A stretch of DNA of 64,000 nucleotides from a virus. Of the stretch, positions 6,004 through 56,578 are shown piece by piece (the first letter of the stretch is position 1; each line of letters begins with the position of its first letter). A program made the position numbers and the translations under genes. The DNA is taken from the IMG/VR virus record IMGVR_UViG_3300037245_001295, positions 32,001-96,000 of that record. One strand, written 5' to 3'. The notes under the pieces were generated by a model. That model saw nothing but the letters and a program-made list of their open reading frames with translations. It ran no database searches and was not told the origin of the DNA.

Positions 6004-6062
6004 CCATTGAGGCACGCAGGGATTTTGTGATCCCACTAACTTAACAATGAAGGAGGCTTATA

Positions 6063-6812: not shown

Positions 6813-6822
6813 GCAGTGAACG

Positions 6823-6875: not shown

Positions 6876-6889
6876 GAGGGAGAACAGTT

Positions 6890-7435: not shown

Positions 7436-7602
7436 AGGCCGACTGGGAAGATTGCATGTCTCCTACGCAAGCACAAATACTCGCGTATGACCAGACACGT
7501 CAACATGACGAATTTGAGGAAGCGAAGGCGTTGTCGGGAGCAGGGAAGTCTCCCGCATCGCCAACAATGGGACGAGGCCGCAGGGGACGAGGACGACGCT
7601 AA
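7294..7602 (+). CDS. -1 frameshift extension of tail chaperone (G-GT type)
   Basis: The -1 frame is open to TAA 7600-7602 (…LWPGNRTGEYAVWRACERFGIRPPGV…); slippery candidates are G AAA AAG (7294) and C CTT TTT (7318). Confidence 0.65.
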   Translation, partial: EKVEGSPRPFSTWDGGGTKKILWPGNRTGEYAVWRACERFGIRPPGVKADWEDCMSPTQAQILAYDQTRQHDEFEEAKALSGAGKSPASPTMGRGRRGRGRR

Positions 7603-12418: not shown

Positions 12419-12492
12419 GGACTTCAGCGGGCCACGGGCACCTGATGTTGGTGCCTGCTAGACAGCCTGCGTAATACGATTGGAGACAAGAC

Positions 12493-12981: not shown

Positions 12982-12995
12982 TTCTCTCCCTCGGT

Positions 12996-13033
12996 GAGCC
13001 TTGGCGCGAGACTTCTCGCGTCAGGGCTCTTTT
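12996..13033 (+). terminator. intrinsic terminator
   Basis: GAGCCTTGGCGCGAG-ACTT-CTCGCGTCAGGGCTC-TTTT. Confidence 0.75.
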
Positions 13034-13050
13034 CAAGACAAGGTGCTGAT

Positions 13051-15146: not shown

Positions 15147-16336
15147 TGGCACTAAGAGTAACAAGACAACTTGGTGAAGTTTTGGGAACCGGCGGCGGTG
15201 TAGTTCGTGTTATACGTCAGTATACTGAAGTTTTAAGTGCGTCCTATACAATCTTTAACGAATCAGTGTCCTCCACACTGTCGCTTGGTTCCGAATCAGG
15301 TGAGTTCCTCGGCATTGGGGAAAGTGCCCTTGTAGGTAATACACTTAATATGACCTCTGAGGTTGTTACGAGTGGCCTATTACAGTCTATTGGTTCAGTA
15401 ATGAACCTGCAACAAACTATGGTGGTGCAGAAGCCGATCTATCAGTTTATGGTATCTCCGATGCGTATTCTTAGTGCTGTTAGTCGGGCGGGTTCGGAGA
15501 GGAATCTGTCACTAGCGTCAGAGATGTTGGTGACCGGTCAGGCAGGGCGGGGTTACGACGTTGATGTAGCGACCACGCTGGCAGTGGTCCAAGACATGTA
15601 TCGCCTCCAGACCCCCTCTTCAACGATGAACCTCACACAAACAGTTGACTATGGGAAGACCAAAGGACTTGAAGTAAGCGACATGGCTCTTGAGCAGACG
15701 GTTCTGTTAAATGCTGACTGGGTCCGTCCGATCACACAGACTTTGGGCATCGGCCACACCCTGACTTACTATCTCCCTAGTCCGTGTGGCACGAAGGCCT
15801 ACACCCCCTATATCGGTGAGAACACTATCATCGGCGCCCCCGCGCCGCCCGACGCTTCGCTGCCGTTTGCACCTGGACTCCCAGTGGACGAGAGATTCCA
15901 ACTTCTGTATCCTGGCCTTGGAGAGGCTACCGACACGGTCGAGCTTCGAGCCCCTAACCTGGACAACAGAGAGCGCCTATCCTTCACGAGGATTAACAGA
16001 GAGACTCGTGGCGGTCGTTTAATCGTATTTGCCGACCCGACGTGGCCACAAGTAAATACGTTGGTACTTAGCTTCTCCGGCCTCTCCAAAGCAGAGGTGG
16101 ACTCGCTACAAACATTCATGGTGGCACACCTCGGAGAGGAGGTTGGTTTGATTGATTGGGAGGGTCACCATTGGGTCGGTGTGATTACATCACCAACGGA
16201 ACGGGCTGTGCAAGATGGTAAAGGCTGCGACGGCCGGTGGACCATCGGATTGGAGTTTGAAGGCGTTATGTTGGAGGAGGCGCCGTCTGGGTCGCACATG
16301 TCGCTGGCGAGTTCTGTCATCGCGGTGTTAAACTAA
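15146..16336 (+). CDS. minor tail protein (C-terminal distal-tail-like domain)
   Basis: Translationally coupled; C-terminal region resembles the next gene (VELRAP/VELPSP; IDWEG..WVG/IDHNN.TWVG; LEFE). Confidence 0.55.
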   Translation: MALRVTRQLGEVLGTGGGVVRVIRQYTEVLSASYTIFNESVSSTLSLGSESGEFLGIGESALVGNTLNMTSEVVTSGLLQSIGSVMNLQQTMVVQKPIYQFMVSPMRILSAVSRAGSERNLSLASEMLVTGQAGRGYDVDVATTLAVVQDMYRLQTPSSTMNLTQTVDYGKTKGLEVSDMALEQTVLLNADWVRPITQTLGIGHTLTYYLPSPCGTKAYTPYIGENTIIGAPAPPDASLPFAPGLPVDERFQLLYPGLGEATDTVELRAPNLDNRERLSFTRINRETRGGRLIVFADPTWPQVNTLVLSFSGLSKAEVDSLQTFMVAHLGEEVGLIDWEGHHWVGVITSPTERAVQDGKGCDGRWTIGLEFEGVMLEEAPSGSHMSLASSVIAVLN

Positions 16337-16349
16337 TTGGGAGAGTCAC

Positions 16350-16733
16350 ATGTTCTTTATTCGAGCCCCATACCCCACCACCCAAGTGACGGTGGAACTT
16401 CCGTCGCCGCATTGGAGCGACTCTGTAGCCCTTGCCGCAACCTTACAAGTGTTGCGAGCAATGAACGGGGCGCAGTACACTTACGTTCACGAGCGAAATG
16501 GTCGGAAGAAGTTTCAGTGGGATTTCACCATAGCTAGAAACAAAGCCCTGGAGTTGCGTGCCTTTCTGAAGGTGTACTTCCGCTTCCAAGTGCAGATCAT
16601 TGACCACAATAACGAGACGTGGGTTGGTTACTTAATCAACAACCCGTTTGAAAGTGCTGGCAGCGGTCGGGCGGTGGACTTCCCAGGGGGTGAGACGATG
16701 GACATTACTTTGGAATTCGAGGAGGCTGAGTGA
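16350..16733 (+). CDS. distal tail-like protein
   Basis: GGGAG RBS; position before the large tail tip gene. Confidence 0.55.
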   Translation: MFFIRAPYPTTQVTVELPSPHWSDSVALAATLQVLRAMNGAQYTYVHERNGRKKFQWDFTIARNKALELRAFLKVYFRFQVQIIDHNNETWVGYLINNPFESAGSGRAVDFPGGETMDITLEFEEAE

Positions 16734-19732
16734 TGCGTGACATACCTGCTGATGTTTTAGCCAACTTACAACAGAACCATGGCATCGAACCGGTCCTCAT
16801 TATCGAGGTCCAGTGGGTTGATGGCGGTCCACTTGTATTGTACTCTGACCAAAAACTATCTGGTGCCGAGTACCCGTATCCTTCAATCATCCAAGTGGGT
16901 AATTTCGACGCGGCTATGCAGGTTGATGGTGCCGGGGACTCGCAGCAAATCAGCATTGTGTTGAATGATGTTGATGGTGCTTTGAAAACTCTCATTGACG
17001 AGAACGATATTCATAAACGCCCTGTGCGCGTGTTTCAAGGCGTTCAAGGTCTTACCATAGACCACAAGTTCCTACTTTTCAAAGGGGAGCTTAGCAGTCC
17101 CATTGTCTGGAATGAAGGCGACAGGACACTGAGCTTTGACGTGTTGACGCGCGAAGAAGATACAGAGGTGGGTTTTTCGATGGAGGAAGGTGACTTCCTC
17201 AGTATCCCCAACGAAGCTCTCGGTAAAGCGTGGCCTCTGGTCTTCGGAGAAGTGTGCAACATGCAGGCGGTCGCTGTAAGGGCTCAACAGCGGGGGCGCA
17301 TGGTGGCCGGCGAAGGTGTGCATGATTGGACCTTGCCGAATCGCATTTGTCAAGCTCGCGAACTGCAATGCCCCGCGCAGTACACAGGGCTTGAAACATA
17401 CTTAAACAACCTTAGGTTTGGCAGTGGCACACAACGTTTGATTACGGTCCCGACCTTTGCGCCTGACTATGACTGTATAGACAATCGTTGGGCGACAGTT
17501 TGTCAATTACAGAACTTGTACACGCAGCAACGTTCATACGAACATACGTCTTTTGAGATCACCGGTGGCGGGGAGTTTCCTCAAGGTGAGGGTAACCGAG
17601 TTGTGCTGAATATCAATGGGGCAAAGTTTCATGGTTGGTTTGACGACACCACCTTCCATGTTACCGAGCGATTCCACCCTGAATATGACAACATCACCTT
17701 AGCCGGTTGTACGTCCATTCCCGAACGTAATCGTGGTCTCCTTCGCGTCAATTGGTTCAGCACGGATGAGTCGGTACAAGATCAGCTTGATGGAGGCAGT
17801 CCATTCTGGGGGCGATCGGACTCTGGACTAACGTATGCGCCGAACCCCAATAGCCCAAACCTCGGTGCTTGCGTGGAGGAAGACGCAACCCAATTAGTCC
17901 CTGGAATGACTGGCGGTCCTGCCCAAGCCCAGGAGGTGTTTGACGCGATGCCCACGTCTAGTTTCTTCTGGATTCCGCCCGGGGCCGAAGTGTTCTTAGA
18001 AGAAGAGGGGGAGGTGCTCTCGATTGTTAGTCTCATTACGGGGACGGTGAACCATGTGGCTGCCTACAAGAAGCAGCCGGTAGGTAATGACTTGCTTCTC
18101 GAAGTTCCGGCCGATTATTACACAATCTACGAGACCGACTACAATGGCTACACGGTTATAGAAATTGGCATGGAGCAGAAGATGAGCCTTCGTGACCCTG
18201 ATTGGGGCGACGATCTCTATGTGTCATTTACGTCAGATGTTGGGCCTAATCCCGTTGACATCATCCAATGGTTGGTGGAGAAATACACTAGCCTGTCAGT
18301 AGATGCCGCTACATTTGCAACCGTCCAGACGAGTATGACTAACTACCCGACGAACTTTACCCTCAAAGAGCGGAAGAATGTCTTGGAGTTGATTAAGGAT
18401 ATTGCCTACCAAACTCGATGCGCAGTGTATATTCGAGACGGTGTGCTATTCATCAAGTATCTGGCTACCGAGCCCGCGTCTGTTCGGACGATAACGGGTG
18501 GGGACATTCTTACGCAGTCTTTCAAGATTACTCACACACCCTCTGAAGACCTCGTGACAAAGTCGGTGGTGAATTACCGGGAGACTGAAGCCCCCGTCGT
18601 GCGGGGCGACAACATTGACCACACCATCATGCTGAAGTACAACATTCCAAAATACGGTGTCTCTGAGGCGGACTACGATTACTACACTCAAAATACTTTT
18701 GGCACAATTATGAAGTCGTCCACCTTCTGGCTGATTCGAGACGCACACACCTGGAAGTACGTTGAGTTTGACACGACCATTAAGCACTTGGATTTAGATT
18801 TGTTTGACTGCATCACTCTGGACTTGCCGCAGTTTTCAGCGAGTCCAATAAAGTGTGTCATCACTGAAGCTCAATTCAATAGTGAAAACAATACCATTCA
18901 CTTCCAAGCCTGGACTCCTGTTCGGGCAGGAACTTCAATCCAGTATCCACTAGCGTGGCCAGCGGCTCTACCAGCCGAGACTGTGTGGCCGGTAGACGGC
19001 GAGCAGCAGTGGGCCAATCCCGGCTATTCGTTCAACGTCACCCCACCAATCGGCCACATCCTTTCGGGCGGCGACACAACGGAGCTTGAGAACTTTGTCG
19101 TTCAGTCTAGTGGCGACCGCCACCCGTCTGACCTTGACGACGTGCTGCCTTCGGTTGAGTGCCTGATCTCCTCCTTTGAAGAGGGGGATGTGGATGTTAG
19201 TGAGTTGGCCCCAGAGTTCCGAGCCTTGAATCTTGCGAAGCGTAATCACAAAAAATTGTTGGAGCGAGGGGGTTGGTCTGTGAATTGGCCCGATAAGGAC
19301 GAACAAGAGGAGGAAGAGGAGGAGAAAAACCCAGAGCGGGGCGGCTGTGGTACGGCAACGGAAGGTAGCGGCTGCGTTTACGACGTTACCGTGACATATA
19401 CCCTGCCGACCAGTGTGTCGTCTGGAAAGATTGCTGGCGGTTGCGCTGGCGGTCCTTGTTGGTGTGACGCAGGTGGCGGGCCTTGCATATCCGCACTAAG
19501 TCAGAAATGTCACTCATTTAGTAGTATGTCGGCAGCTACATTATTCCACTCTGAGATGACGGCTACAATTCAAGGGTTGAAAAATGCCTGCGGTTACTTC
19601 TGTGGCACGTCGTCACCTTATATGGTGAGTAGTGTTAAGGCATTTGCCGACCCCACAAGCGACGAGCCTTGTGAAGACCCACCGGGTCAGCCCGAGGTGC
19701 CATACATTGAGTACGAACCACAGGACGTTTAA
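16730..19732 (+). CDS. tail tip / baseplate hub protein
   Basis: 1000 aa; WPLVFG, NPVDII, LDLFDCI hub-like motifs; Cys-rich C-terminus. Confidence 0.7.
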   Translation: MMRDIPADVLANLQQNHGIEPVLIIEVQWVDGGPLVLYSDQKLSGAEYPYPSIIQVGNFDAAMQVDGAGDSQQISIVLNDVDGALKTLIDENDIHKRPVRVFQGVQGLTIDHKFLLFKGELSSPIVWNEGDRTLSFDVLTREEDTEVGFSMEEGDFLSIPNEALGKAWPLVFGEVCNMQAVAVRAQQRGRMVAGEGVHDWTLPNRICQARELQCPAQYTGLETYLNNLRFGSGTQRLITVPTFAPDYDCIDNRWATVCQLQNLYTQQRSYEHTSFEITGGGEFPQGEGNRVVLNINGAKFHGWFDDTTFHVTERFHPEYDNITLAGCTSIPERNRGLLRVNWFSTDESVQDQLDGGSPFWGRSDSGLTYAPNPNSPNLGACVEEDATQLVPGMTGGPAQAQEVFDAMPTSSFFWIPPGAEVFLEEEGEVLSIVSLITGTVNHVAAYKKQPVGNDLLLEVPADYYTIYETDYNGYTVIEIGMEQKMSLRDPDWGDDLYVSFTSDVGPNPVDIIQWLVEKYTSLSVDAATFATVQTSMTNYPTNFTLKERKNVLELIKDIAYQTRCAVYIRDGVLFIKYLATEPASVRTITGGDILTQSFKITHTPSEDLVTKSVVNYRETEAPVVRGDNIDHTIMLKYNIPKYGVSEADYDYYTQNTFGTIMKSSTFWLIRDAHTWKYVEFDTTIKHLDLDLFDCITLDLPQFSASPIKCVITEAQFNSENNTIHFQAWTPVRAGTSIQYPLAWPAALPAETVWPVDGEQQWANPGYSFNVTPPIGHILSGGDTTELENFVVQSSGDRHPSDLDDVLPSVECLISSFEEGDVDVSELAPEFRALNLAKRNHKKLLERGGWSVNWPDKDEQEEEEEEKNPERGGCGTATEGSGCVYDVTVTYTLPTSVSSGKIAGGCAGGPCWCDAGGGPCISALSQKCHSFSSMSAATLFHSEMTATIQGLKNACGYFCGTSSPYMVSSVKAFADPTSDEPCEDPPGQPEVPYIEYEPQDV

Positions 19733-19755
19733 GCAACTGTTTAAGGGAGAGAGAG

Positions 19756-20136
19756 ATGAACGGTTTATTTTGTAAGTATCAGGAGAACATGGTTGATGAC
19801 GGTAGCGGCATTACCGTCTCAGCCTGTCGGTGTCCCGACGCCGCGCACCAGCACAGCATTGTAAGCGAGTTAATTTGCTCAGCCTGTCATCTACGGGAGG
19901 AACCAACTGCGGAGGAGCGACATCTGAACACACACATGCAGGAGCAGAGGGGCGGAGACATTCTTGAGACTCGTCCCTTAGCCGTTCGGACGAAAATCTT
20001 GGAGGACTACTGCCTAAAATGCAAACACTGTGATAGTGTTGACAAGGTATGTATGGCCTGTACCTGTAACGTCAGGATACCGGTCGATGACTACGTGAAG
20101 TACGCCGCCCACCACTGTCCACTGGAGTTATGGTAA
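19756..20136 (+). CDS. Cys-rich metal-binding protein
   Basis: Multiple CxxC; ends in CxxC..CxxCxC..HCPLELW. Confidence 0.6.
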   Translation: MNGLFCKYQENMVDDGSGITVSACRCPDAAHQHSIVSELICSACHLREEPTAEERHLNTHMQEQRGGDILETRPLAVRTKILEDYCLKCKHCDSVDKVCMACTCNVRIPVDDYVKYAAHHCPLELW

Positions 20137-20885
20137 TGAGCCGACCTTGCCAGAAACGACGAACGATTGTCCACAAAGGGCAAGACGGTTCCAAGAGAAC
20201 TTACTATAGGTGTGCGCACGGCGGTGCGAACACCTACCGCCAGGAAGTGGACGACGGGATTTGCGACGGTTGCGTCCTTAGACAGGAATTGCCAGGGGCC
20301 GCCAAGTGTAGCCCTAAGCCTCCGGCAAACCCAACTTACAGTCAGCCAACATACGGGCAGGACGCGGAGATACGCTACGAACCTATTGACGCTTCCGAGC
20401 CGCCGGAGTGCCCAGAAGGATATACACGCCGCACGGACGATGAATGGGCGTTTGACTCGGTATGGTTCCCGTGCCCCTACCGGGCTTTTAGCGACGATTT
20501 GAAACCAGACGGATCGCTGCAAGTTCACGCCTTCTGCACTGTGGGTCATAAGAAGGTCACCTGCGGCGACTGTGAACAGTGTGAAGGTGCATTAGTACAG
20601 CTTGACGGTTCTTTGAAGATAGACAAGTCGCCAGAGACGCCTGCCTTAATAAGTAAGGCTAGGACATACTGGAAAGCCGTGAAGAATTGGATCTCAAGTG
20701 GGCGACCCGTCAGATCGGATGCCGAGGTGCAGAGGATACATGCAAACTATTGTTTGCAGTGTGATTGGTATGACAAACCGACCCAGAGATGTAAGGGCTG
20801 CGGTTGTAAAGTCAAACCGGTTGGAAAGGCCTTGCTCAACAAAGCCAAGATGGCTACCGAGCACTGCCCCCGTGATTTTTGGTAA
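20130..20885 (+). CDS. Cys-rich metal-binding protein
   Basis: Multiple CxxC; ends in CxxC..CKGCGC..K.KMATEHCPRDFW. Confidence 0.6.
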   Translation: MVMSRPCQKRRTIVHKGQDGSKRTYYRCAHGGANTYRQEVDDGICDGCVLRQELPGAAKCSPKPPANPTYSQPTYGQDAEIRYEPIDASEPPECPEGYTRRTDDEWAFDSVWFPCPYRAFSDDLKPDGSLQVHAFCTVGHKKVTCGDCEQCEGALVQLDGSLKIDKSPETPALISKARTYWKAVKNWISSGRPVRSDAEVQRIHANYCLQCDWYDKPTQRCKGCGCKVKPVGKALLNKAKMATEHCPRDFW

Positions 20886-22553: not shown

Positions 22554-22557
<4 letters not shown>

Positions 22558-23048
22558 TTCTCTCTCTCCGCTGCAATCTTTGCTGCGATGTCCGGGTTTC
22601 GTCTCAGGAAGTCCTCTTCGTCAAACGGGATGTTGAAGTGATCCAAAGACTGCCGGAATTCAGTGAGACCTTGGCAGGGGCGATCATCCCCGTCTTTGTA
22701 ACTGTCTACATAGTGACGAAGGAACAAGAGGTTTGCGAGGCAATGATCCAAGTGATGTTCGCCGGAGTCTTTGTCCAAGTCTTCTCCGAACCACCACCAC
22801 TTCATCCAATGCCTCATGTAACTATCATAGCACACAGACCATGCCATTCCGCGAGCCCAGTTGAAAGCTGAATACTTCAACAAGCCTCCCATGAATACGC
22901 GGCACGCACCGGCCAGTAGATGGATGGGCATCAATGAGAATGACACCTTTCCCAGATTAGCGCGAGCGCCAGTTCCGCGTTCCTTGCTGTTTACATCGCC
23001 CACCGCATACTCTAATGCTTCTGGAATCTCCAAATATTCAGAACTCAC
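22554..23048 (-). CDS. dATP/dGTP diphosphohydrolase (DUF5664-like)
   Basis: K....L.P; G..KY..NW..G; RH; GED.D.DSG..HL.H...N..FL; GTG start after GAGGAG. Confidence 0.8.
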
Positions 23049-23220
23049 AGTCGTGCTCCTCTTCGTCAACGTTGGTAATGTTGCAGAAATCGCCTTCAAG
23101 GTCGTCAATGATGTCATCGAGATCGTCGGGGATTTCTGGTCCGTACAAGGTTGTAAGCAATGTCGCCAGGACTACCGACCCTGCACGACCCGTGCTGCGG
23201 AAAATGGCTATCTCGTGCAT
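23038..23220 (-). CDS. hypothetical small acidic protein
   Basis: Fills the gap between primase and diphosphohydrolase genes. Confidence 0.45.
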   Translation of the reverse strand: MHEIAIFRSTGRAGSVVLATLLTTLYGPEIPDDLDDIIDDLEGDFCNITNVDEEEHDCEF

Positions 23221-34195: not shown

Positions 34196-34595
34196 TGAGC
34201 GTAATGGCTTGTCACCGCGCTGGCTGCGAAAGCGTCATGTGCGACCGGTATTCATCCCAGTATGGCTACATCTGCGGCGGGTGCTTTACTGAACTCGTCC
34301 ACTTGGGAGCCGGGATCGACGTAGCGGCATTCATGTCGAGCGAGCGTAATCAGGATACGGAAGAGGCGGACTTCGCCTACTTCGACGCCCTTTTCCAACT
34401 CGGAGACGACTGATGACACGAGATGAGATGCTAAAGGAAGGCTACACCTGTTACTGCATTCAATGCCATGCGGCATACAAAACGCAACCGACCGTGCAGT
34501 ACGAAGACGGGCATGGAGGCCGCCGGTTGGGAGAATGCGGGCGTTGTGGTTGTGATCTGTTTGCCAGTATGAAAGATGATTCACAGGTGAAATAA
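34195..34595 (+). other. two small Cys-rich ORFs (34195-34413, 34413-34595)
   Basis: CxxC pairs; overlapping stop/start codons. Confidence 0.5.
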
Positions 34596-35509
34596 TGCCA
34601 AGCACTGTTGAAAGATTAACGTTGAAAGGGCTTATCACGCCGCCAAGTTGGCTGCCCACCAATGTCCATTACGAGACCGTCATAGGCTCAGTGGCCTACG
34701 GTGTAAGCACCGATGCGTCTGACTTCGACACGGTTGGTTTCTGTGTCCCGCCTAAGGACATAGTGTTCCCGCACCTTGCGGGCAGGATTCAAGGGTTCGG
34801 CCGACAGCAGCGGAAGTTCGTCTGCTACCAGAAGCACGGCGTATATGTGGCCGACGCATTGGGCGGCGCGGGGCGTACCTATGACCTGAACGTCTACAAC
34901 ATCGTTCACTACTTCAACCTGTGCATGGAGAACAACCCGAACATGATCGACTCGCTGTTCACGCCCCAAGAGTGCGTGCTGCACAGCACTAAGATCGCGA
35001 ACATGGTGCGGGACAAGCGGTGCATGTTCCTACACAAGGGAGCGTGGCACCGGTTCAAGGGTTATGCGTACAACCAGCTTCACAAGATGAAGACGAAGAC
35101 GCCGGAGCCCGGCAGCAAGCGGTGGGACAGTGTGCAGAAGCACGGCTTTGACGTGAAGTTTGCGTACCATGTGGTGCGGCTGCTTTATGAGGTCGAACAG
35201 ATTCTCACTGAGGGGACCATCGACATTCGGCGGAACCGGGCGCATCTGAAGGCCATCAGAAATGGCGAAGTGTCGGAGGCCGGTGTAACACAGTGGGCTT
35301 CTGACAAAGAGAAGTCCTTGGAGAAGGTGTACGAAACGTCCCCACTGCCACACGGCCCCGACGAACCCGCGATTAAGCGGCTGCTGTTTGAGTGCTTGGA
35401 AGAACACTACGGCAGTCTGAAAGACGCTGTAGTGTTGGAAGATTCGGCGTCTCTCGCTCTGCGAGAGATTGCCGAGATTGTTGACCGAAGCCGAACCTTG
35501 TTAGGATAG
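34595..35509 (+). CDS. Pol-beta superfamily nucleotidyltransferase (RlaP-like)
   Basis: GSVAYG.ST..SDFD; NNPNMID; K.AYH..RL. Confidence 0.85.
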   Translation: MPSTVERLTLKGLITPPSWLPTNVHYETVIGSVAYGVSTDASDFDTVGFCVPPKDIVFPHLAGRIQGFGRQQRKFVCYQKHGVYVADALGGAGRTYDLNVYNIVHYFNLCMENNPNMIDSLFTPQECVLHSTKIANMVRDKRCMFLHKGAWHRFKGYAYNQLHKMKTKTPEPGSKRWDSVQKHGFDVKFAYHVVRLLYEVEQILTEGTIDIRRNRAHLKAIRNGEVSEAGVTQWASDKEKSLEKVYETSPLPHGPDEPAIKRLLFECLEEHYGSLKDAVVLEDSASLALREIAEIVDRSRTLLG

Positions 35510-35511: not shown

Positions 35512-36435
35512 ATGCTACTTTGTTGGCAATGCAATTTAGAAGCGGAGATTCTACCTGACGGGTGGGCGTGCCATCATTGCGGTCAGCATGGCGATTATAG
35601 TGGCAACTACGCTAAGACGTGGACAATAGGTTCATTACGGAATGTTCCATACTGGAAAGAAGACATGCCTCAGACTTGGTTCTCGGCAGATTGGCATCTT
35701 GGCCACGAAGGTATCCTCACGCACCAGTTGACTCGGGACGCGGATTTTGCCAGCGTGGACGAGATGGACGCCGCCATCATTGACGGCACCAATGCCGTCG
35801 TCATGCCCCAAGATACCCTGTACTTCCTTGGCGATTACGGGTGGAAGGCCAGCCGGTACGGTCACTATCGTCAGAGGTTGAACGTGCGAGGACTGCACAT
35901 TATCCGGGGCAACCATGACCGCTCCAGCCTGGGCCACCACTGCTCGACGTTCACTGACATGCTCACCCGCAAGTTCCGCTGGCCTGGGCTGGACCATCGC
36001 GTGAAGATTCACATGCTGCACTACCCGATCTTGTCGTGGGACGCCATACACCATGGCGGCATCCACCTGTACGGACACTGCCACGGGATGATCGAGGACA
36101 ACCTGGATAAGATTCATCCTGGCCGACGTTCGATGGATGTTGGCATTGACAACATACACAAGCTCACTGGTGAGTGGCGGCCAATTAGTTTGGCCGAAGT
36201 GATCGCTGGCCTCGGCGGCGACACCACTGCTGACCGGATGCCTGGACCCTTCGAGGAAGCCGTCAGCACGGAAGACAAACTGCGAGAAGCTCTAGAAGAT
36301 ATTTCGGTACGTTACGAAGAGTCTCTCAGCGGTTGGCGGGCCGGATACGTTTGCCAATTGTGCGGCGCGTCCGCTGGTAGCCGGGAGCAGCACGAACACA
36401 AACCTGACTGTATCGTCATAAGGAGCCAAGAATGA
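35512..36435 (+). CDS. calcineurin-like metallophosphoesterase
   Basis: ADWHLGH, LGD, GNHD, HYP, LYGHCHG, DVGID; flanked by small Cys motifs; true start may be at MPQTW. Confidence 0.85.
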   Translation: MLLCWQCNLEAEILPDGWACHHCGQHGDYSGNYAKTWTIGSLRNVPYWKEDMPQTWFSADWHLGHEGILTHQLTRDADFASVDEMDAAIIDGTNAVVMPQDTLYFLGDYGWKASRYGHYRQRLNVRGLHIIRGNHDRSSLGHHCSTFTDMLTRKFRWPGLDHRVKIHMLHYPILSWDAIHHGGIHLYGHCHGMIEDNLDKIHPGRRSMDVGIDNIHKLTGEWRPISLAEVIAGLGGDTTADRMPGPFEEAVSTEDKLREALEDISVRYEESLSGWRAGYVCQLCGASAGSREQHEHKPDCIVIRSQE

Positions 36436-37604
36436 AAACTTGCATCGCGTGTGGCTTCAGTTTGACTAAGCCCTTTTACAATCCAGGTCCGCAGCCGCTA
36501 GCGGCTCTCAATCTACCAAAGGACGAAGACTCCTCGGTAGACGCACTCCGGTACCCGATGAACTTTCATCGTTGCCTGCGATGCGGTCATATCTTCAACG
36601 TGGACTTCGACGTTGCGATGATCCCGTATGAGGAAGATTCCAACCTGATGTACAACAACGGTGCCGGTTGGCAGACCCACATGCAGGAAGTCGCGTGGCA
36701 CTTCACGGAGACCTATAGTGTAGAGAATAGTGTGGTAATCGACATTGGGGCCGGCGACGGTATGTTTCTGGAAACCTTGAAGTCACACAGCGTCAACAAC
36801 CGGTGCATTGCCTTTGAGCCTGGGATCGAGCACCGGTCGTGCGAAGCTGTTGGCTTGGAGACGTATGTTGACTACTTCATCCCGGAGCGGGATATTCCAC
36901 GCTTTCGACCACACGCCCTCACCTGTCGGCACGTCTTGGAACACATGGAGAGCCCACAAGAGTTCGTCGCCGCTTTAGCGTACTATGCTAGGAAATCCCG
37001 ACCACTGTTGCTGGTGGAGGTTCCGGGCGTTGACAAGGCACTTGCGAGTGGCCGCTTTGGCGACTACCTATATGAGCATGTGAGCAACTTCACACACCGC
37101 AGTCTCGTGGAGATGATGGGAAGCGCTGGCTGGCTCACAACTAGTTGTGCATATCATTACAATGACGAAGTGCTCGTGTGGGTGGGCCGACCCGATCCCC
37201 ACGGCTTTGAAGAACCGGTAGCAACACCCGACCCATCGAATGTGGCGGCACTGCTGGAATTCCTCCTACGTAACGAGCGTAGCGCGGCCTTCTGGGGCGG
37301 CACTGGCAAGGGCGCAGCCTTCCTCAACACCTGCGACATCGACGGCTACCGAGTAATCGACTCGGACGTTCGTAAGGCGGGGAGATACGTGCCCGGCACC
37401 AGTATGCAAATCGAAGCGGCGAGCAACCTGTTGGTTGAACCGGTGGAGACGGTCATCATCACGACCCGTTGGCGAGCCGCCGACATCTACGCGGAAATCA
37501 AACGAGACTATCCATGTGTGAAGGAAATCTTCATAGTGGATAATGACGCAATACGACAATACACAGAGGACGACTATGTCACGGAAAAAGCAAAAGAAGC
37601 GTAA
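36432..37604 (+). CDS. NDP-sugar C-methyltransferase (class I SAM, N-terminal Zn site)
   Basis: CIAC...CLRCGH; DIGAGDG; HVLEH; YEH.SNF; WG..GKG..FL; K.GRYVPGT. Confidence 0.85.
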   Translation: MKTCIACGFSLTKPFYNPGPQPLAALNLPKDEDSSVDALRYPMNFHRCLRCGHIFNVDFDVAMIPYEEDSNLMYNNGAGWQTHMQEVAWHFTETYSVENSVVIDIGAGDGMFLETLKSHSVNNRCIAFEPGIEHRSCEAVGLETYVDYFIPERDIPRFRPHALTCRHVLEHMESPQEFVAALAYYARKSRPLLLVEVPGVDKALASGRFGDYLYEHVSNFTHRSLVEMMGSAGWLTTSCAYHYNDEVLVWVGRPDPHGFEEPVATPDPSNVAALLEFLLRNERSAAFWGGTGKGAAFLNTCDIDGYRVIDSDVRKAGRYVPGTSMQIEAASNLLVEPVETVIITTRWRAADIYAEIKRDYPCVKEIFIVDNDAIRQYTEDDYVTEKAKEA

Positions 37605-39486
37605 GCCTCAGCGTAAGCCTCAGCGTAAGCCTCAGCGTAAGCGTACGGCCACGCCGATTACGTCGAAGGCCCCCTTTCTGATTAGCAAAGAACCGACGAC
37701 ACTCCCCGTCACCTTCAGGGAGAAACTCTACCGACTGATGGCGCGCGGTCAGCAAAATGCTGTGACGGAGAGTATTCTGGAGATACTTCTGTATATGCAG
37801 AACAACAACTTCAGCAGTCTCGATCAAGCGGGTCGAGATCGACTAAACGAAATCGTCAGCGCAATCTTTATGGTGATGTCCGATCCTGCCTACACGATTG
37901 ATCCCAAGTACGCAGGCACGCTGGTAGCAAGGGCGCACCTGATGGCAAACCTTGTAGCCCTTTCTTGCTATGAGACAACTGACCACATCCTGAAACAGGT
38001 GATGACCCAGAAGAATAACATCATCAAGATTTTCTTCCTGTACACCGTGCGGAATTACACTGAGTTGGACTCGACTAAATTCTTCGAGATGCAGCCAGCC
38101 CTTGCGTCCATGTGGTACTTCACGTATCCGCTCGCGACTGTTGGCTGTGTACTGCCACACCAGCAGTCCAATCTGCGTCGTCACTTTGAGACCATCAACC
38201 CCGCGTATGCACCGAGCGACCATCGTGTAGCGGTCCCGTACTTCGCGTCCACGTACTTTGCGGGGCAGGACAGGAAAGACCGCCCCATGAAGGAAACCAT
38301 CAACAACAACTGCAAGAAGTGGTTGAAAGCCGCTGGCATTAAGGTGGAAAACAAGCCAGCCCGAGACAGCATGTTGGTCGTCACCTCGAAGTGGTTTGAT
38401 AACAGCGCGGTCTATAAGAGCTACTTCCCATTCATCGACCGTTTTCGCAAGAAATACCGTATGACCTTACTAAACACCGGAGTCCACAAACCTGCGAAAT
38501 TGGCAACAGACTACTTCGACGTAGTCCACACCGCGAGAATGACTGCCAAAGGCGGTAACCTAAACGAGTTGTCGCTAAAGTCTGTGACGACTGGCGACTT
38601 CCAACTCGCGTTTTTCCCGGACATTGGAATGACAGATGAGTCCGTGTGGCTTAGTAATCTGCGAATGGCCCCTATCCAGGTCACGGGTTATGGCCACCCT
38701 GTCAGCACCTTTGGTAGTGAGATTGACTACTTCGTCGTGGGCGAGGAAGTCGAAGACTTGGATAACTTGGATAAGAACTACTCCGAGACTCCCATCGTGC
38801 TTCCCGGACTGGGCTGTGTTCCCACATGGCCAACCTACACGCCTAAACTCCCTGGGAAGAAGACCGACAAGATCGTGGCCAATTGCGTATGGGGGCCGGA
38901 CAAGTACAACTACACGATGATGCGTATACTGCAAGAACTAACGAGTCAAGCCCCGGCGATTGAGTACGCGATCTTTGCAAGCCGTGGTGTGCATCGCTAT
39001 AACTCCTTCCTCCCTTTCGCCACAGAACTGTCACAACAGTTGGGCGACACTGGCAGGCTGCACGCAGATAAAGAATACATGGAATACATGGAGGAGGCCG
39101 AGTATGGCGACTTCGCCATTAACTCGTATCCATTCGGTGGCTACAACACGGTGGTAGAAGCTCTCTTCCTTGGTAAGCCTGTGGTGACATTGGAAGGCGA
39201 CCGCTTTTATAACCTCGCGGCCTCAGCCCTGCTACGGCGGGTAGGCCTTGACGACCTTATTACCACCACGGCCCCCCAGTTCATCGGGACATGCGCCAGG
39301 ATGGTAAACGACCCCGCGTTCCTAGCCGAGCAGAAAGCAAAACTGGCCTCCGTAGATTTGAAAGAAGCGATCTTCGACACGGACGAACCGGCGTACTTTG
39401 AGCAAATGATGGAGTACATCATTGACAATCACGAGCAACTCAAAGGCAGTAAGAAACCTTTATTCGCGAGAGAGATATGTCGCTAA
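37576..39486 (+). CDS. HMW1C-like GT41 protein glycosyltransferase
   Basis: FFPDIGM, SNLRMAPIQVTGYGHPVST..SEIDY, SYPFGG.NT..EAL..G.PVV; helical N-domain with IFFLY. Confidence 0.8.
   Translation: MSRKKQKKRKPQRKPQRKPQRKRTATPITSKAPFLISKEPTTLPVTFREKLYRLMARGQQNAVTESILEILLYMQNNNFSSLDQAGRDRLNEIVSAIFMVMSDPAYTIDPKYAGTLVARAHLMANLVALSCYETTDHILKQVMTQKNNIIKIFFLYTVRNYTELDSTKFFEMQPALASMWYFTYPLATVGCVLPHQQSNLRRHFETINPAYAPSDHRVAVPYFASTYFAGQDRKDRPMKETINNNCKKWLKAAGIKVENKPARDSMLVVTSKWFDNSAVYKSYFPFIDRFRKKYRMTLLNTGVHKPAKLATDYFDVVHTARMTAKGGNLNELSLKSVTTGDFQLAFFPDIGMTDESVWLSNLRMAPIQVTGYGHPVSTFGSEIDYFVVGEEVEDLDNLDKNYSETPIVLPGLGCVPTWPTYTPKLPGKKTDKIVANCVWGPDKYNYTMMRILQELTSQAPAIEYAIFASRGVHRYNSFLPFATELSQQLGDTGRLHADKEYMEYMEEAEYGDFAINSYPFGGYNTVVEALFLGKPVVTLEGDRFYNLAASALLRRVGLDDLITTTAPQFIGTCARMVNDPAFLAEQKAKLASVDLKEAIFDTDEPAYFEQMMEYIIDNHEQLKGSKKPLFAREICR
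37598..37642 (+). repeat. 12-bp tandem repeat AGCGTAAGCCTC x3.75
   Basis: Read directly; encodes RKPQ repeats. Confidence 0.9.
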
Positions 39487-40559
39487 CACCCGTTGAAGTA
39501 GTCTATGTACACGCCGTAGAGCCCCACCCCAACGCCGACCGGTTGGAAGTAGCGAAGGTGCTCGGTACCCAGTTCGTTACCCAGAAGGGTAACTTGAAGG
39601 TGGGAGACCTTGTGGTCTACTTCCCGCCCGATATGTTGATCCCGGAAGAGATGGGGGTGAAGCTGGGTGTGGATGGCTACTTGAAGCACTCGATCTATCC
39701 TGGAGACATTGCGAAGACCAAGTGCCGCATCGGAGCGATCCGACTACGGGGCACGGCGTCATTCGGCTTTGGCATCGCTGTGACTACTGAGCCAATACTT
39801 GAATTGATGGCCGACCTCGGCATCGAGAAAGGCTGCGACGTATCGGCGGTGTTCCGAGCCGTCAAGTATCAACCGCCCGAGCGGTTTCAGCGCGGCGACA
39901 CTGTACGCCAGCCTGGAACGTTCCACACCTATACCAACATCCAGCACTACTACCGCAATGTAAGTGCTATCGCAGAAGGTACTCCGGTACGCATCACCGA
40001 GAAGCTGCACGGCACGAACTCTCGTCTTGGCGGGTGCCTAGATGACGGCTTCGAGTTTATGTGCGGCACACACCACCGCCGGGTGGCACCTGGAGACGCG
40101 AAGGGCCGACGCTCGCTATACTGGGAGCCGATGACCGACGACATGCACGACATGATCGAATTCCTCTCAGCTAACGGCCTGCATAACATCATTGTGTTCG
40201 GTGAGATTTACGGTCAAGGCATTCAGAAGATGGATTACGCCCGCACCAAGAAGCGCGGCTACCGAGTCTTTGACATCTCAGTCGATGGCCAGTACGTAGA
40301 CTGGAAGTACGTGAAGTCGTACTGCAACCTGTACGACATCGAGATGGTGCCCCTGCTGTACTCGGGTCCGTTCATCCATGAGTTGGTGCCGGAACTCACC
40401 TCCGGGCCTACCACGATGGCAGACCCCGATGCCATCCGGTGCAAGTTCAAGGGCCGCGAAGGTATCGTGATTACACCCTTGACTGAGACGTACAGCCCGG
40501 TCATTGGCGGGCGAACGATCCTGAAATCCGTAAGCCCAGAATACCATGAGGCTATGTGA
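39477..40559 (+). CDS. RNA ligase, DRB0094-type (OB-fold plus Rnl2-like)
   Basis: HPNADRLE, GDLVVYFPPD, TEKLHGTN, FGEIYG, FDI, REGIVI, LK.VS. Confidence 0.88.
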   Translation: MSLTPVEVVYVHAVEPHPNADRLEVAKVLGTQFVTQKGNLKVGDLVVYFPPDMLIPEEMGVKLGVDGYLKHSIYPGDIAKTKCRIGAIRLRGTASFGFGIAVTTEPILELMADLGIEKGCDVSAVFRAVKYQPPERFQRGDTVRQPGTFHTYTNIQHYYRNVSAIAEGTPVRITEKLHGTNSRLGGCLDDGFEFMCGTHHRRVAPGDAKGRRSLYWEPMTDDMHDMIEFLSANGLHNIIVFGEIYGQGIQKMDYARTKKRGYRVFDISVDGQYVDWKYVKSYCNLYDIEMVPLLYSGPFIHELVPELTSGPTTMADPDAIRCKFKGREGIVITPLTETYSPVIGGRTILKSVSPEYHEAM

Positions 40560-41161
40560 TGAGATTTGTGAGCATTGACATTGAGACGACCGGGCTCGAC
40601 CCCAACACTTGCCAAGTTCTGGAGATCGGAGCCGTTATTGAGGACGATAGGCTAGGCCTTAACGAACTGCCCACTTTCCGGTACCGAATACTGCGGGACA
40701 ACTACGTGGGCGAGCCTTATGCTCTCAGTATGCACAAGGACTTGTTCAAGGACTTGGCTAACGCGACAAGGAACACGACAGGTGGCATTCAGGCGAGGGG
40801 AGTCGCACTGATGAACCTTTGTTGGTATGGTCTTGAACGCGAGTTTGCCACGTATTTTGCCGAATGGCTCCTAGCATGCGATATTGACCCGACGAAGTTC
40901 GTCGCGGCCGGTAAGAACTTCGCCCACTTCGATGAGCCCTTCTTGAAGACGCTCACGGGCACGGGCATCGTCAGGTGGCATCACAGGATTCTCGACCCTG
41001 GCAGTATGTACGTGCGGCCGACTGACGAGTTCATGCCGGACACTAACGAATGCTGTAGACGTGCGGGTCTCGACCCCGCTTACATCCCCGGCGACGAACA
41101 CACCTCAATCCACGATGCGTTGGTAGTGGTCGCCCTAATCCGAAGCCGCTGGATAAAGTAA
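40556..41161 (+). CDS. DEDDh exonuclease
   Basis: SIDIETTG, AGKNFAHFD, HRILD, H.SIHDA. Confidence 0.85.
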   Translation: MMRFVSIDIETTGLDPNTCQVLEIGAVIEDDRLGLNELPTFRYRILRDNYVGEPYALSMHKDLFKDLANATRNTTGGIQARGVALMNLCWYGLEREFATYFAEWLLACDIDPTKFVAAGKNFAHFDEPFLKTLTGTGIVRWHHRILDPGSMYVRPTDEFMPDTNECCRRAGLDPAYIPGDEHTSIHDALVVVALIRSRWIK

Positions 41162-52884: not shown

Positions 52885-53302
52885 ACTGATTGACACTATT
52901 CGGATATTGGACTTCCCATTCCATGCTTATGTCGTGGTGGGTAGTGGGATACTGGCTATTCGGGGCATTCGCCCGGCGAGGGATATTGACATTGTTGTCA
53001 CTGGTGAACTCTACAATGAATGTAAGAAAAGTGGTTGGCGTGAAGAGTGGCACGCGGTTGTAAACAAGTATGCCTTGCACAAGCATGTTGGTTGTTTTGA
53101 AGTTGAACTCTACCGGGACGTTAATGGTGGTGAGGTGCAGTTTACATTTGAGGAGTTGCGGGCGTCGGCCGATATATTTCAAAATGCCCCCTTTATTTCC
53201 CTCCCTCAAATGTTGCGTGTGAAACAGCGTTGCGCGTCCTGGGGTGCAAAACATCGTGAAGACGTCGCGTACCTGCAAAGGCTGATTTTCCTGGAGAACT
53301 AA
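52874..53302 (+). CDS. minimal nucleotidyltransferase-fold protein
   Basis: VVVGSG.L...GIR...DIDIVV (GS..DxD); K...D near C-terminus. Confidence 0.6.
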   Translation: MNLKLIDTIRILDFPFHAYVVVGSGILAIRGIRPARDIDIVVTGELYNECKKSGWREEWHAVVNKYALHKHVGCFEVELYRDVNGGEVQFTFEELRASADIFQNAPFISLPQMLRVKQRCASWGAKHREDVAYLQRLIFLEN

Positions 53303-53670
53303 TGATTGACAAGCGCGACATCACGTTCCGGTACACCCGAGGGCAAGGCCCTGGCGGTCAACGTAAGAACAAAGTCGAGACCTGCGTGATTGCCACACAC
53401 ACGCCCACAGGCCTTGAAGTTCGGGTTGACGGACGCAACCGCCGCCAGAATCAGAAGGAAGCTGTCAAGCTCCTGACGCAGCGGGTGCGGGAAGCTGCTG
53501 CGAAGCGGGTGGCGAAACAGCGGAAGGCGCGGCGCGACCACGCAATTAAGAATGAGGAACGCATACGGACGTATGACTACTCGCGAAACCTCGTGACAGA
53601 TCACCGGACGGGCAAGACAGCCCCGATCAAGGAAATCCTAGAAAAGGCTAAACTGGAGAAACTGCGATGA
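53302..53670 (+). CDS. peptide chain release factor-like protein (GGQ domain only)
   Basis: RGQGPGGQ..NK....V...H.PTG and ERIRTY.Y....VTDHR. Confidence 0.85.
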   Translation: MIDKRDITFRYTRGQGPGGQRKNKVETCVIATHTPTGLEVRVDGRNRRQNQKEAVKLLTQRVREAAAKRVAKQRKARRDHAIKNEERIRTYDYSRNLVTDHRTGKTAPIKEILEKAKLEKLR

Positions 53671-55532: not shown

Positions 55533-55697
55533 ATGAGTAAGTCGTTCCTTTACGCGATCATCTTTGGCGCATTGGCCGCCGTGGCCGTCCGTTTTTCCAC
55601 GGGCCTCACACCCGATGGGGAGTGCGTTACTACGTACTTGGCAATGATCCTGGGTACCCTGCTGGCCATCGGAAAAACTCTGGAGCAGAGATCGTGA
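55533..55697 (+). CDS. small membrane protein
   Basis: GGAG RBS; two hydrophobic segments. Confidence 0.5.
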   Translation: MSKSFLYAIIFGALAAVAVRFSTGLTPDGECVTTYLAMILGTLLAIGKTLEQRS

Positions 55698-56578
55698 AAA
55701 CGCACACCTTTTCCATCGTGGTCGGCACGGCAGCCTGTAATGCGAAGTGCCCGTTCTGCGTTAGCAAGATGACGCATACGGCGGCGTGCCGGATGAAGGC
55801 CATTAACAAACGTCGCTTACACACGGCCTGCCGCATTGTCGAGCAAGCCCGAGACGGGTTGGTGAACGTACTGCTGACCGGCAAGGGTGAGCCACTGCTG
55901 TTTCCCGACGAAATCACAGAATACCTTGTCGAGCTTGGGCAGTACAATTTCCCGTTGATCGACCTCCAGACTAACGGTATCCTCCTCAAGGCGTCAGCCG
56001 ATCACGGGTATCTGAATAAGTGGGTGGGCTTAGGCCTCACCTTGGCCTGTGTCTCAATCACACATTGGGAGCCGGATCATAGCAACAACTTAATGGGCAT
56101 CGACCGTGGCTTTAACTTCTATGAGGCCGTGGAGGTGATCCATAAAGCCGGGCTGGCCGCCCGCCTGAATTGCACTTTGACAAGAAGTGGCTGTGCCACC
56201 CTGCACGACGTTGACATCTTGATTAACCGCTGTCGCGAGGAAGGTGTTGAGCAGCTTACCTTACGTGAGGTCGAAGTGCCGGATTACACCCCCGGCTCGG
56301 GCACGGCTGATACGACTAACGCGGTTCGTGAATATGCTGAGCAAGAGAAGCGAGTCGGCTTCGCTAATCAGATTCGTCTACATCTTGAGATGAAGGGTGC
56401 CACGAAGCTCATGGAGTTGCCGCATGGAGCAGTAATCTATGACGATGCAGGGCAGAATGTCTGCATCTCCAACTGTCTCACGTCTACGACGGACCCGAAC
56501 GACATTCGGCAGATCATCTACTTCCCCGATGGCCGGATCGCTTATGATTGGAAATACAAGGGAGCCCGAATCCTGTGA
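55694..56578 (+). CDS. radical SAM protein
   Basis: CNAKCPFC (CxxxCxxC), TGKGEP, QTNG. Confidence 0.85.
   Translation: MKTHTFSIVVGTAACNAKCPFCVSKMTHTAACRMKAINKRRLHTACRIVEQARDGLVNVLLTGKGEPLLFPDEITEYLVELGQYNFPLIDLQTNGILLKASADHGYLNKWVGLGLTLACVSITHWEPDHSNNLMGIDRGFNFYEAVEVIHKAGLAARLNCTLTRSGCATLHDVDILINRCREEGVEQLTLREVEVPDYTPGSGTADTTNAVREYAEQEKRVGFANQIRLHLEMKGATKLMELPHGAVIYDDAGQNVCISNCLTSTTDPNDIRQIIYFPDGRIAYDWKYKGARIL

Follow-up and report, generated by a model that had tools for sequence, protein, structure and literature searches.

Two overlapping genes, one predicted to encode a nucleoside diphosphate (NDP)-hexose C-methyltransferase (MT) and the other a glycosyltransferase (GT) of family GT41, lie on the + strand of a 64,000-nucleotide stretch of viral DNA, hereafter called the window, which represents bases 32001-96000 of the 124,740-bp IMG/VR virus record IMGVR_UViG_3300037245_001295. 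This record, which is rated 100% complete and derives from an uncultured virus, is the genome of a tailed phage: the window contains genes for a major head protein (1980-3446) and a tape-measure protein (8111-12418), and a gpA-type large terminase gene lies immediately 5' of it. Unless a locus or genome is named, positions refer to the window. The two genes belong to a + strand block of replication/repair genes that extends from ~26.7 kb onward, and they are among the + strand open reading frames (ORFs) between 33382 and 42958 that are tightly packed and mostly overlapping. The features of the two genes are as follows.

36432-37604, + strand: MT gene of the three-domain NDP-hexose C-methyltransferase type, an ORF of 390 aa
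36441-36584, + strand: N-terminal Cys4 zinc ribbon of the MT (C4, C7, C48, C51), based on sequence, conservation, and alignment with TcaB9 and MtmC
37576-39486, + strand: GT gene, HMW1C-like GT41, 636 aa (647 aa from an earlier ATG at 37543)
37576-37662, + strand: disordered, strongly basic N-terminal tail of the GT (K/R-rich, with RKPQ repeats), based on the predicted local distance difference test (pLDDT) of the model
37598-37642, + strand: perfect 12-nt tandem repeat with 3.8 copies, detected by Tandem Repeats Finder
37717-38331, + strand: all-alpha N-terminal domain of the GT, equivalent to the acceptor-binding all-alpha domain (AAD) of HMW1C enzymes, based on model helices H59-H263 and the alignment with AaNGT
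38347-39441, + strand: GT-B catalytic part of the GT, whose nucleotide-binding core is invariant, based on alignments

An earlier note on this DNA had described the pair as overlapping genes for a Zn/S-adenosylmethionine (SAM) methyltransferase and a 636-aa GT41 with HMW1C-type motifs, and both ORFs were confirmed, together with the motifs FFPDIGMTDES, LRMAPIQVTGYGHPVSTF, and SYPFGGYNTVVE in the GT translation. The MT start is located 8 nt after an AAGGAG and overlaps the stop codon of the upstream phosphoesterase gene as ATGA. On sequence grounds, the GT start is best placed at ATG 37576 (636 aa), where a GAGGA is found 7 nt 5' of the codon and at least 90% of 32 aligned homologues retain the Met; the two genes would then overlap by 29 nt, compared with 62 nt from the earlier ATG. 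The tandem repeat (period 12, 100% matches, score 90) spans the MT stop codon and the N-terminus of the GT, where it encodes the RKPQ repeats, and its copy number could change by slippage. The pLDDT of the GT tail falls below 50 at residues 1-17 and 19-40 of the 647-aa form, and such K/R-rich tails are confined to one viral subclade (e.g., L003, L006, L010, L016, and L024), with none in the other. Promoter-like and terminator-like sites in the block were not above those in shuffled sequences (9 vs. 6.9 and 13 vs. 9.1, respectively).

The assignment of the GT to the HMW1C type, also proposed in that note, is supported by profile and structure comparisons. The Pfam family Glyco_transf_41 (PF13844) matched with an E-value of 1.4e-7 and 30.7 bits, above its cut-off of 25, over residues 531-614 only (the C-terminal 84), while HMW1C_N was detected under its cut-off (3.6e-4), and the NCBIfam model NGTferase (NF049992) matched with an E-value of 1.4e-24 but with 86.7 bits against an equivalog cut-off of 1000. 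A profile of 32 GT homologues matched the chains of HMW1C and N-glycosyltransferase (NGT) structures in PDB with E-values of 1e-54 to 2.5e-51 over profile positions 63-578 of 610, whereas O-GlcNAc transferase (OGT) and SPINDLY reached 1e-20 or worse in the same search. Similarly, the AlphaFold2 (AF2) model (pLDDT 88.7, predicted template modeling score 0.85) retrieved only ApHMW1C, ApNGT, and AaNGT among the top 10 Foldseek matches (1.5e-29 to 6.4e-28; root-mean-square deviation (rmsd) 4.4-5.0 A), with template modeling (TM) scores of 0.70-0.77 and 17-19% identity to HMW1C/NGT chains; OGT and SPINDLY followed at ~1e-18, ten orders of magnitude behind. The model thus supports a predicted HMW1C architecture for the GT, consisting of an all-alpha domain and a GT-B part without tetratricopeptide repeats (TPRs).

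The MT could likewise be placed in the fold family of NDP-sugar C-methyltransferases to which it had been assigned, with three domains and with MtmC, TcaB9, and KijD1 as the top matches of both profile and Foldseek searches. In Pfam, Methyltransf_23 (1.8e-10) and Methyltransf_14 (1.9e-5) exceeded their cut-offs, and the Zn domain Methyltransf_13 (0.003, 18.1 bits) fell under its cut-off of 31.3. C48 and C51 are found in all 29 homologues and C4 and C7 in at least 90% of them, and the N-terminal ribbon aligns to the N-termini of TcaB9 and MtmC. The MT profile matched MtmC (4rv9, 4.1e-21), TcaB9 (5.7e-18), and KijD1 (5.6e-16) over nearly the full length, with profile positions 2-351 aligning to MtmC residues 11-380. 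Foldseek ranks 1-18 of the AF2 model (pLDDT 90.3) were all occupied by MtmC, TcaB9, or KijD1 (1.5e-22 to 1.6e-17), followed by a generic methyltransferase at 4.9e-9; the TM scores with the three enzymes were only 0.51-0.57, with a large rmsd and 17-19% identity, for which a different relative placement of the domains in the model is a candidate explanation. H167, H171, E215, and H216 are invariant in 29/29 homologues, E215-H216 aligning to the E-H of the MtmC motif YHEH and RHVLEH to RHVFAH, with the Tyr of YxEH shifted by one position. His225 of TcaB9 is the catalytic base, and MtmC is a bifunctional methyltransferase-ketoreductase. According to PDB titles, Y76, H181, Y222, E224, and H225 of TcaB9 have been mutated to probe its mechanism; the putative correspondence of phage MT positions to TcaB9 H181, E224, and H225 comes indirectly rather than from a direct alignment, and a mapping of Y76 was dropped owing to an ambiguous alignment.

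Comparison with NGTs indicates which parts of the enzyme have been retained. According to the available part of PMC10507012, AaNGT binds the pyrophosphate through K440, N520, T437, S277, and backbone atoms, binds the ribose through D524, and contacts the sugar through H276, S277, and G369/H370, while R177, H214, and D215 of its all-alpha domain read the +2/+3 Thr of the sequon, the R177A and D215A variants being inactive. The accessible text of a study of Yersinia pestis HmwC (PMC11329713) describes a His that is crucial across GT41 (AaNGT H276, corresponding to hOGT H558), and shows that O-GlcNAc transfer to many substrates is possible for an HMW1C-like enzyme. These AaNGT residues were mapped in two ways, by HMMER profile alignment and by MAFFT alignments that included EtpC (from the etpBAC locus) and a Caballeronia GT, and residues were counted in 31 viral, 10 planctomycete, and 57 other family sequences (98 in total), with positions of the window protein given in the 647-aa numbering. 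The K440, G369, and H370 columns are invariant (98/98; K454 and G384-H385 in the window protein), the N520 column is Asn in 31/31 viral and 10/10 planctomycete sequences (N535), and the D524 column contains Asp or Glu, with E539 of the window protein at the ribose-binding position. Judging from these columns, the nucleotide-binding machinery of the GT appears intact. At the H276 column, the 31 viral sequences have Thr (16), His (12), or Ser (3), with S288 in the window protein, and the S277 column is Ala in all 41 viral and planctomycete sequences (A289). In the window protein, the nucleotide core (K, G-H, N) is thus intact, and the sugar-contacting His-Ser has become Ser-Ala. The sugar pocket thus seems to have been remodelled, in a manner that fits an unusual donor.

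The sequon-reading residues present a different picture. Arg is absent from the R177 column of all 98 sequences (0/98), where the window protein has Val or a gap; His at the H214 column occurs in 0/31 viral, 0/10 planctomycete, and 26 of the other 57 sequences (A230 in the window protein), and Asp at the D215 column in 0/31, 0/10, and 12 of the other 57 (V231). The HMMER posterior probability at H214/D215 is only ~0.5-0.6, and MAFFT gives identical columns. EtpC and the Caballeronia GT keep the equivalents of R177, H214, and D215 and all other mapped residues. The N-X-S/T reading head therefore appears to be missing from the phage GT, and the N-X-S/T acceptor logic that the earlier note had attributed to it is not supported, as these residues are gone in 31/31 viral and 10/10 planctomycete sequences. 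The NGT equivalog cut-off is missed more than tenfold. With the triad absent, sequon counts in virion proteins become uninformative. Domain-wise identity of the AAD relative to the GT-B part gave a ratio of 0.62-0.75 in every comparison, with no sign of an acceptor switch.

The two genes are inherited together. An IMG/VR pattern scan with the GT alignment matched 68 stretches, 35 of which encode a relative, representing 33 distinct loci. In all but one of the 33 (32/33), the MT immediately precedes the GT; the remaining locus, L034, is a 23%-identical outlier. Among 40 loci found via the neighbouring gene for an Mre11-like nuclease, 24 contain both genes, 16 contain neither (including 3 short contigs), and none contains one alone. 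Searches of five entire cassette-less records with both profiles revealed no MT or GT; two of these records are rated 98% and 100% complete, and the existence of such complete relatives without both genes indicates that the cassette is accessory for the wider lineage. In a tree of the Mre11-like protein, built from 36 rows after the omission of three short loci, a duplicate, and a truncated locus, a single clade of 24 (Shimodaira-Hasegawa-like approximate likelihood-ratio test (SH-aLRT) 99) contains the 23 rows with the cassette, and the distribution requires two changes, one gain and one loss (L121). The cassette is thus kept in 23/24 sampled members of a deep clade of uncultured phages with genomes of ~100-175 kb. 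GT identity to the window protein is 33-40% in most viral loci, compared with 55-80% for the Mre11-like protein. In two related phages, a tandem second GT41 paralogue follows the MT (G006:C1:61305-64671 and G007:C1:53064-56374, part of the latter being L184); the two G007 paralogues are 32% identical to each other, and the second has His at the H276 column and Thr at the N520 column. Such long maintenance of the pair argues for selection on a joint function, and the conclusion that the MT and GT form a functionally coupled unit, co-conserved across a deep phage clade, is supported by these observations.

The genes flanking the pair are RNA-repair-like, comprising an RlaP-family nucleotidyltransferase (34595-35509) and a phosphoesterase of phrog_547 (35512-36435) on the 5' side and, on the 3' side, an RNA ligase (39477-40559; 149.2 bits, slightly under the DRB0094 equivalog cut-off of 151.15) and an RNase T-like exonuclease (40556-41161). 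In L121, the phosphoesterase gene directly adjoins the RNA ligase gene at the exact position of the cassette in this phage, and the cassette therefore looks inserted into an RNA-repair-like module. An RNA ligase gene is found within 8 kb of the cassette in only 17/33 viral loci.

Cellular relatives of both genes point toward flagellar loci. At E <= 0.001, a protein collection yielded 159 relatives of the GT (the best 120 of 159 being considered) and 298 of the MT, and when one genome per species was scanned, 223 stretches matched, 168 of which encode relatives; the best 78 loci of these 168 were kept. These 78 loci derive mostly from metagenome-assembled genomes (MAGs) of Planctomycetota, Cyanobacteriota, and Verrucomicrobiota, and the MT occurs in only 8 of them, one of which (L049) belongs to a related phage whose contig was binned into a MAG. 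Among the best 78 loci, planctomycete enzymes are the nearest cellular relatives of both genes (34-39% identity for the GT and 34-46% for the MT). Pfam annotation of neighbours and tblastn searches with flagellar proteins located fliC, fliD, or fliS in 9 of the 10 nearest planctomycete loci, and the MT is present in 7 of these 10. The gene orders are as follows.

L040: fliC-GT-MT (reverse)-fliD-fliS
L043, L047: fliC-MT-GT
L048: MT-GT-fliD-fliS
L045: fliC-GT-...-TylF-like MT-MT-fliD-fliS
L041, L044, L046: fliC then GT, without MT

The phage order, MT then GT, is shared by L042, L043, L047, and L048. The flagellins of the planctomycete loci are giant (901-1069 aa), and those of L040, L041, and L043-L047 contain 17-22% Ser+Thr in the middle part. 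Two further genes were observed in these islands, a radical SAM/SPASM gene between fliC and the GT in L044 and the TylF-like O-methyltransferase gene in L045. In three cyanobacterial loci and one gammaproteobacterial locus whose neighbours were scanned, no MT was found and the surrounding genes were unrelated. A link to the pilin-glycosylating Ogt of cyanobacteria, known from the available part of PMC9306852, was considered and set aside, as membership of Ogt in the GT clade could not be shown, and only 2/115 loci, none of them cyanobacterial, showed the N-terminal motif of type IV pilins close to the GT. In addition, several homologues on E. coli/Salmonella plasmids are annotated as "cobalt ABC transporter permease", which looks like a misannotation.

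A FastTree phylogeny of the GT with 99 rows (13 sequences having been dropped, namely nine truncated ones, one giant fused ORF, and three near-duplicates) placed the 31 viral GTs in one clade (support 93), which joins the 10 Planctomycetota GTs in a clade of 41 (SH-like support 98). The viral sequences form two subclades whose mutual distance equals the distance of either to the flagellar-locus enzymes, and two separate captures may have taken place.

Taken together, it seems reasonably probable that the MT and GT constitute an accessory protein-glycosylation cassette that shares ancestry with an undescribed flagellin glycosylation island of Planctomycetota. The position of the nearest cellular relatives in planctomycete flagellar loci is the reason for reading the pair in this way, and a protein acceptor would follow from the HMW1C architecture combined with that flagellar context. 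In the proposed mechanism, the host would make an NDP-4-keto-6-deoxyhexose, e.g., via RmlA/RmlB, and the phage MT, judging from its fold and conserved residues, would C-methylate this sugar nucleotide with SAM. The translationally coupled GT41 would then move the methylated or another unusual sugar onto a protein in the cytoplasm, selecting its acceptor by means other than the N-X-S/T reading head of NGTs and forming either an O- or an N-linkage. A host supply of the NDP-4-keto-6-deoxyhexose is plausible, and RmlB (dTDP-glucose 4,6-dehydratase) exceeded its curated cut-off in 2/2 Thermoguttaceae genomes with the island.

Several observations count against such an interpretation. Pfam searches of the 120 phage ORFs of at least 100 aa revealed no sugar nucleotidyltransferase, 4,6-dehydratase, epimerase, or ketoreductase, so the MT would have to work on a host metabolite, and the product of a pure C-methylation would retain the 4-keto group, with no ketoreductase among these 120 ORFs to act on it. 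The crucial GT41 His (AaNGT H276) is Ser in the window GT and Thr or Ser in 19/31 viral enzymes, and its replacement means that the chemistry of the GT may differ or that its activity may be lower than assumed. The cassette resides in the replication/repair block, away from the virion genes, whose head and tail members lie at 1980-20885. Neither a flagellin homology search, nor co-variation, nor comparison of virion proteins yielded an acceptor: phmmer and a hidden Markov model (HMM) of seven flagellin mid-domains gave no match to a flagellin mimic among 201 phage ORFs at E <= 10, no structural gene co-varied with the cassette when 203 phage ORFs were compared with three cassette-bearing and two cassette-less relatives, all near-complete (n=5, a weak comparison), and no Ser/Thr-rich tail specific to cassette-bearing phages was present among 17 head/tail proteins. 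Moreover, the monophyly of the viral GTs has an SH-like support of only 93 from FastTree alone, the flagellar function of the planctomycete homologues is deduced from synteny only, and the phage MT and GT do not lie beside fliC, fliD, or fliS among the phage genome neighbours examined.

The acceptor is about equally likely to be a conserved virion protein or a host protein such as flagellin; the virion, host-receptor, or defence proteins proposed in the earlier note are speculative targets. In the 17 proteins of the head/tail module, lengths, Ser+Thr content, sequon counts, and C-termini show no pattern tied to the cassette; the major capsid protein contains 0 sequons, a 570-aa DUF6923 protein 7, and a 249-aa protein at 6063-6812 4. 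All virion genes are common to the cassette-less relatives, implying that the modification is not needed for particle assembly. Apart from the MT and GT themselves, the single ORF whose distribution follows the cassette has 216 aa and an EndoVII domain (L035:3913-4563, outside the window), being present in 3/3 cassette-bearing and 0/2 cassette-less relatives. As for the virion proteins themselves, DUF6923-repeat proteins are encoded at 3791-5503 (directly after the capsid gene), L036:6353-7480, and L036:7730-8872, and the homologue of the first of these in relatives is much shorter (123-426 aa).

A more specific version of the host-protein option, which is tentative and on the whole rather improbable, is that the infecting phage re-decorates a surface filament of its host, most plausibly the giant planctomycete flagellin, with a C-methyl-branched sugar according to a linkage rule unlike that of characterised GT41s. 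If true, such re-decoration would alter either the motility of the swimmer cell or the range of phages able to adsorb to it, in the latter case excluding superinfection by flagellotropic phages. Flagellin glycosylation would then be hijacked by a virus for the first time, in what would also be the first GT41 system of a phage.

Among the alternatives, the one that survives best, though it is doubtful, holds that the MT acts after transfer, methylating the transferred sugar or the acceptor protein, while the GT uses an ordinary host UDP-sugar. It would accord with a phage that has no gene for a 4-keto precursor or a ketoreductase, and methyltransferases of other kinds accompany GT41 enzymes elsewhere: in the available part of PMC4875605, GT41s of enterobacterial flagellin islands are fused to generic S-adenosylmethionine (AdoMet) methyltransferase domains, and a Caballeronia plasmid has a row of adhesin, HMW1C-like GT, and a different methyltransferase. 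However, the phage MT possesses all three domains that enclose the nucleotide sugar in MtmC, TcaB9, and KijD1 and keeps the invariant His and Glu-His positions, generic class I methyltransferases match it more than 13 orders of magnitude worse, and the replacement of the sugar-contacting His-Ser of the GT by Ser/Thr/His-Ala in 41/41 viral and planctomycete sequences fits an unusual donor. The Caballeronia row, on plasmid p1 of Caballeronia sp. Sq4a (L118:2791-9472), consists of consecutive genes for a filamentous-haemagglutinin-type adhesin, the HMW1C-like GT (annotated as "peptide transporter"), and a 586-aa protein with a methyltransferase domain, and represents a further GT41-methyltransferase pairing, in an adhesin locus.

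It is unlikely that the GT is a true NGT that N-glycosylates Asn of N-X-S/T in neck or tail virion proteins with a methyl-branched donor. HMW1C/NGT enzymes are its best whole-length PDB match, NGTferase is its best NCBIfam match, and sequons do occur in some virion proteins (the 7 in the 570-aa DUF6923 protein and the 4 in the 249-aa protein). Against this, R177/H214/D215 are absent in all viral and planctomycete sequences, yet kept in EtpC and the Caballeronia GT; NGTferase reaches only 86.7 of the required 1000 bits; the capsid protein lacks sequons; and cassette-less relatives have all virion genes. A gene for a two-partner-secretion or autotransporter adhesin was found neither in the window nor in the rest of the phage, in contrast to L117 (EtpB-EtpA-EtpC) and L118.

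Glycosylation of phage DNA or RNA by the GT, with the MT tailoring the sugar to provide a shield against host nucleases, appears less probable still. The genomic position is suggestive: within the replication/repair block, the cassette is flanked by phosphoesterase/RNA ligase or helicase genes on one side and the Mre11-like nuclease gene on the other. The disordered K/R-rich tail of the GT is of the nucleic-acid-binding kind in this subclade, and phage GT-A/GT-B enzymes that glycosylate DNA are known (bioRxiv 10.1101/2023.12.21.572611, available part). In the same part of that source, however, the DNA glycosyltransferases resemble T4 beta-GT or TarP, and GT41 is not mentioned. In addition, Pfam searches of the 120 ORFs gave no enzyme that could supply a base hydroxyl, such as a thymidylate-synthase-like hydroxymethylase or a TET/JBP-like oxygenase; the nearest cellular relatives lie in flagellar rather than restriction or DNA-modification loci; the basic tail is missing from the other viral subclade; and the RNA ligase is near the cassette in only about half of the viral loci (17/33). 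As regards a role in defence, no PADLOC family matched either gene of the pair or any of four neighbouring genes (E <= 0.001). Finally, that the cassette is recently captured host DNA without a phage role, or a decaying remnant, is highly improbable: it is absent from complete relatives and was lost in the close relative L121, but a single gain was followed by retention in 23/24 of the deep clade despite a GT identity of ~33-40%, both frames are intact with invariant core residues, Shine-Dalgarno sites precede the overlapping starts, and some phages carry the second, 32%-identical tandem GT paralogue.

If the pair is an accessory protein-glycosylation cassette akin to the flagellin island, it has several implications. 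It points to an undescribed flagellin glycosylation system in Planctomycetota; it would provide the NGT scaffold, already in biotechnological use, with a natural variant whose acceptor rule differs and whose sugar pocket is remodelled; with only two genes, it would be a minimal way of placing a rare sugar on protein, drawing on host dTDP-sugar metabolism; and it offers a testable example of a phage borrowing a surface-decoration module of its host.

Elsewhere in the phage genome, several other genes merit mention. A protein with the N-terminal domain of dATP/dGTP diphosphohydrolase (MazZ-like, 8.4e-23) and an HD_4 domain protein are encoded at 22554-23117 (- strand) and L035:14157-14690, respectively; these genes indicate manipulation of the nucleotide pool but, as a PurZ-like gene was not seen, do not point to a 2-aminoadenine genome. 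An RF-1 domain protein of 122 aa (53302-53670, 4.3e-21) may be an ArfB-like peptidyl-tRNA hydrolase, and tRNA genes were found at 28472 (Glu), 47553 (Asn), and 47630 (Thr). A radical SAM protein (55622-56578; PHROG "QueE-like", weak) is conserved at 50-54% in G008, G010, and G004 and not in G007 or G005, and no DpdA or further 7-deazaguanine gene was seen alongside it. Outside the window, a 644-aa Amidoligase_2 protein adjoins a GATase_6-like protein (L038:11433-13367 and L038:14043-15116, both on the - strand; genome 117433-121116), and among the five relatives this pair is common to G007 alone.

The earlier remark that the pairing was not known as a described phage system has stood. The GT had no match in 50,697 deposited phage genomes, a search of phage records gave only two weak matches for the MT and no near match for the window DNA, and BFVD contained generic GT-B proteins only (TMq <=0.39, E >=3.9e-8), with no full-length look-alike of the GT. 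No phage gene of this kind was found in the literature on HMW1C and phage, and no description of the planctomycete islands in the literature on flagellin glycosylation and C-methyltransferases. To our knowledge, very few systems of phage-encoded protein glycosylation exist, and none on the GT41/HMW1C scaffold. Beyond that remark and the rest of the note, the analysis brought out the affinity to flagellar loci, the accessory status, and the absence of a phage precursor pathway.

Mycobacteriophages offer a candidate parallel for the phage-encoded decoration of proteins in the cytoplasm. As Freeman et al. reportedly described in 2023, mycobacteriophage-encoded glycosyltransferases of other GT families modify capsid and tail-tube proteins at their Ser/Thr-rich C-terminal tails, whereas the present phages have no cassette-specific Ser/Thr-rich tails. 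Compared with TcaB9, KijD1, and MtmC of antibiotic deoxysugar pathways, the phage MT has the same Zn ribbon, class I SAM domain, and C-terminal domain, but lacks a neighbouring dehydratase, aminotransferase, or reductase and occurs in a phage/flagellar context rather than in a natural-product cluster. The phage GT shares with HMW1C-like NGTs (H. influenzae HMW1C; ApNGT, 3Q3E/8J30; AaNGT, 8P0O/8P0Q; EtpC of enterotoxigenic E. coli) an all-alpha domain plus GT-B part without TPRs over ~620-648 alignment columns, the phosphate/ribose core (K440, N520, G369-H370, and D524 as Glu/Asp), and a soluble nature with no signal peptide evident. It differs from them in its low identity (17-19%), the loss of R177/H214/D215, the change of H276-S277 to S-A, the lack of an adjoining two-partner-secretion adhesin, its pairing with a sugar C-methyltransferase, and its location in a phage. 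Flagellin glycosylation islands of Enterobacteriaceae contain GT41 enzymes mostly fused to methyltransferase domains, as given in the available part of De Maayer & Cowan 2016 (PMC4875605). The phage cassette differs from the enterobacterial and planctomycete islands in lacking neighbouring flagellin, fliD, and fliS genes as well as any flagellin-like protein in the phage, and from the enterobacterial ones in that their MT, as far as the available part of that source describes it, is a fused generic AdoMet domain, whereas the phage MT is a separate TcaB9-type enzyme; within the same limits, the coupling of a GT41 to a methyltransferase function is common to the phage cassette and to both kinds of island.

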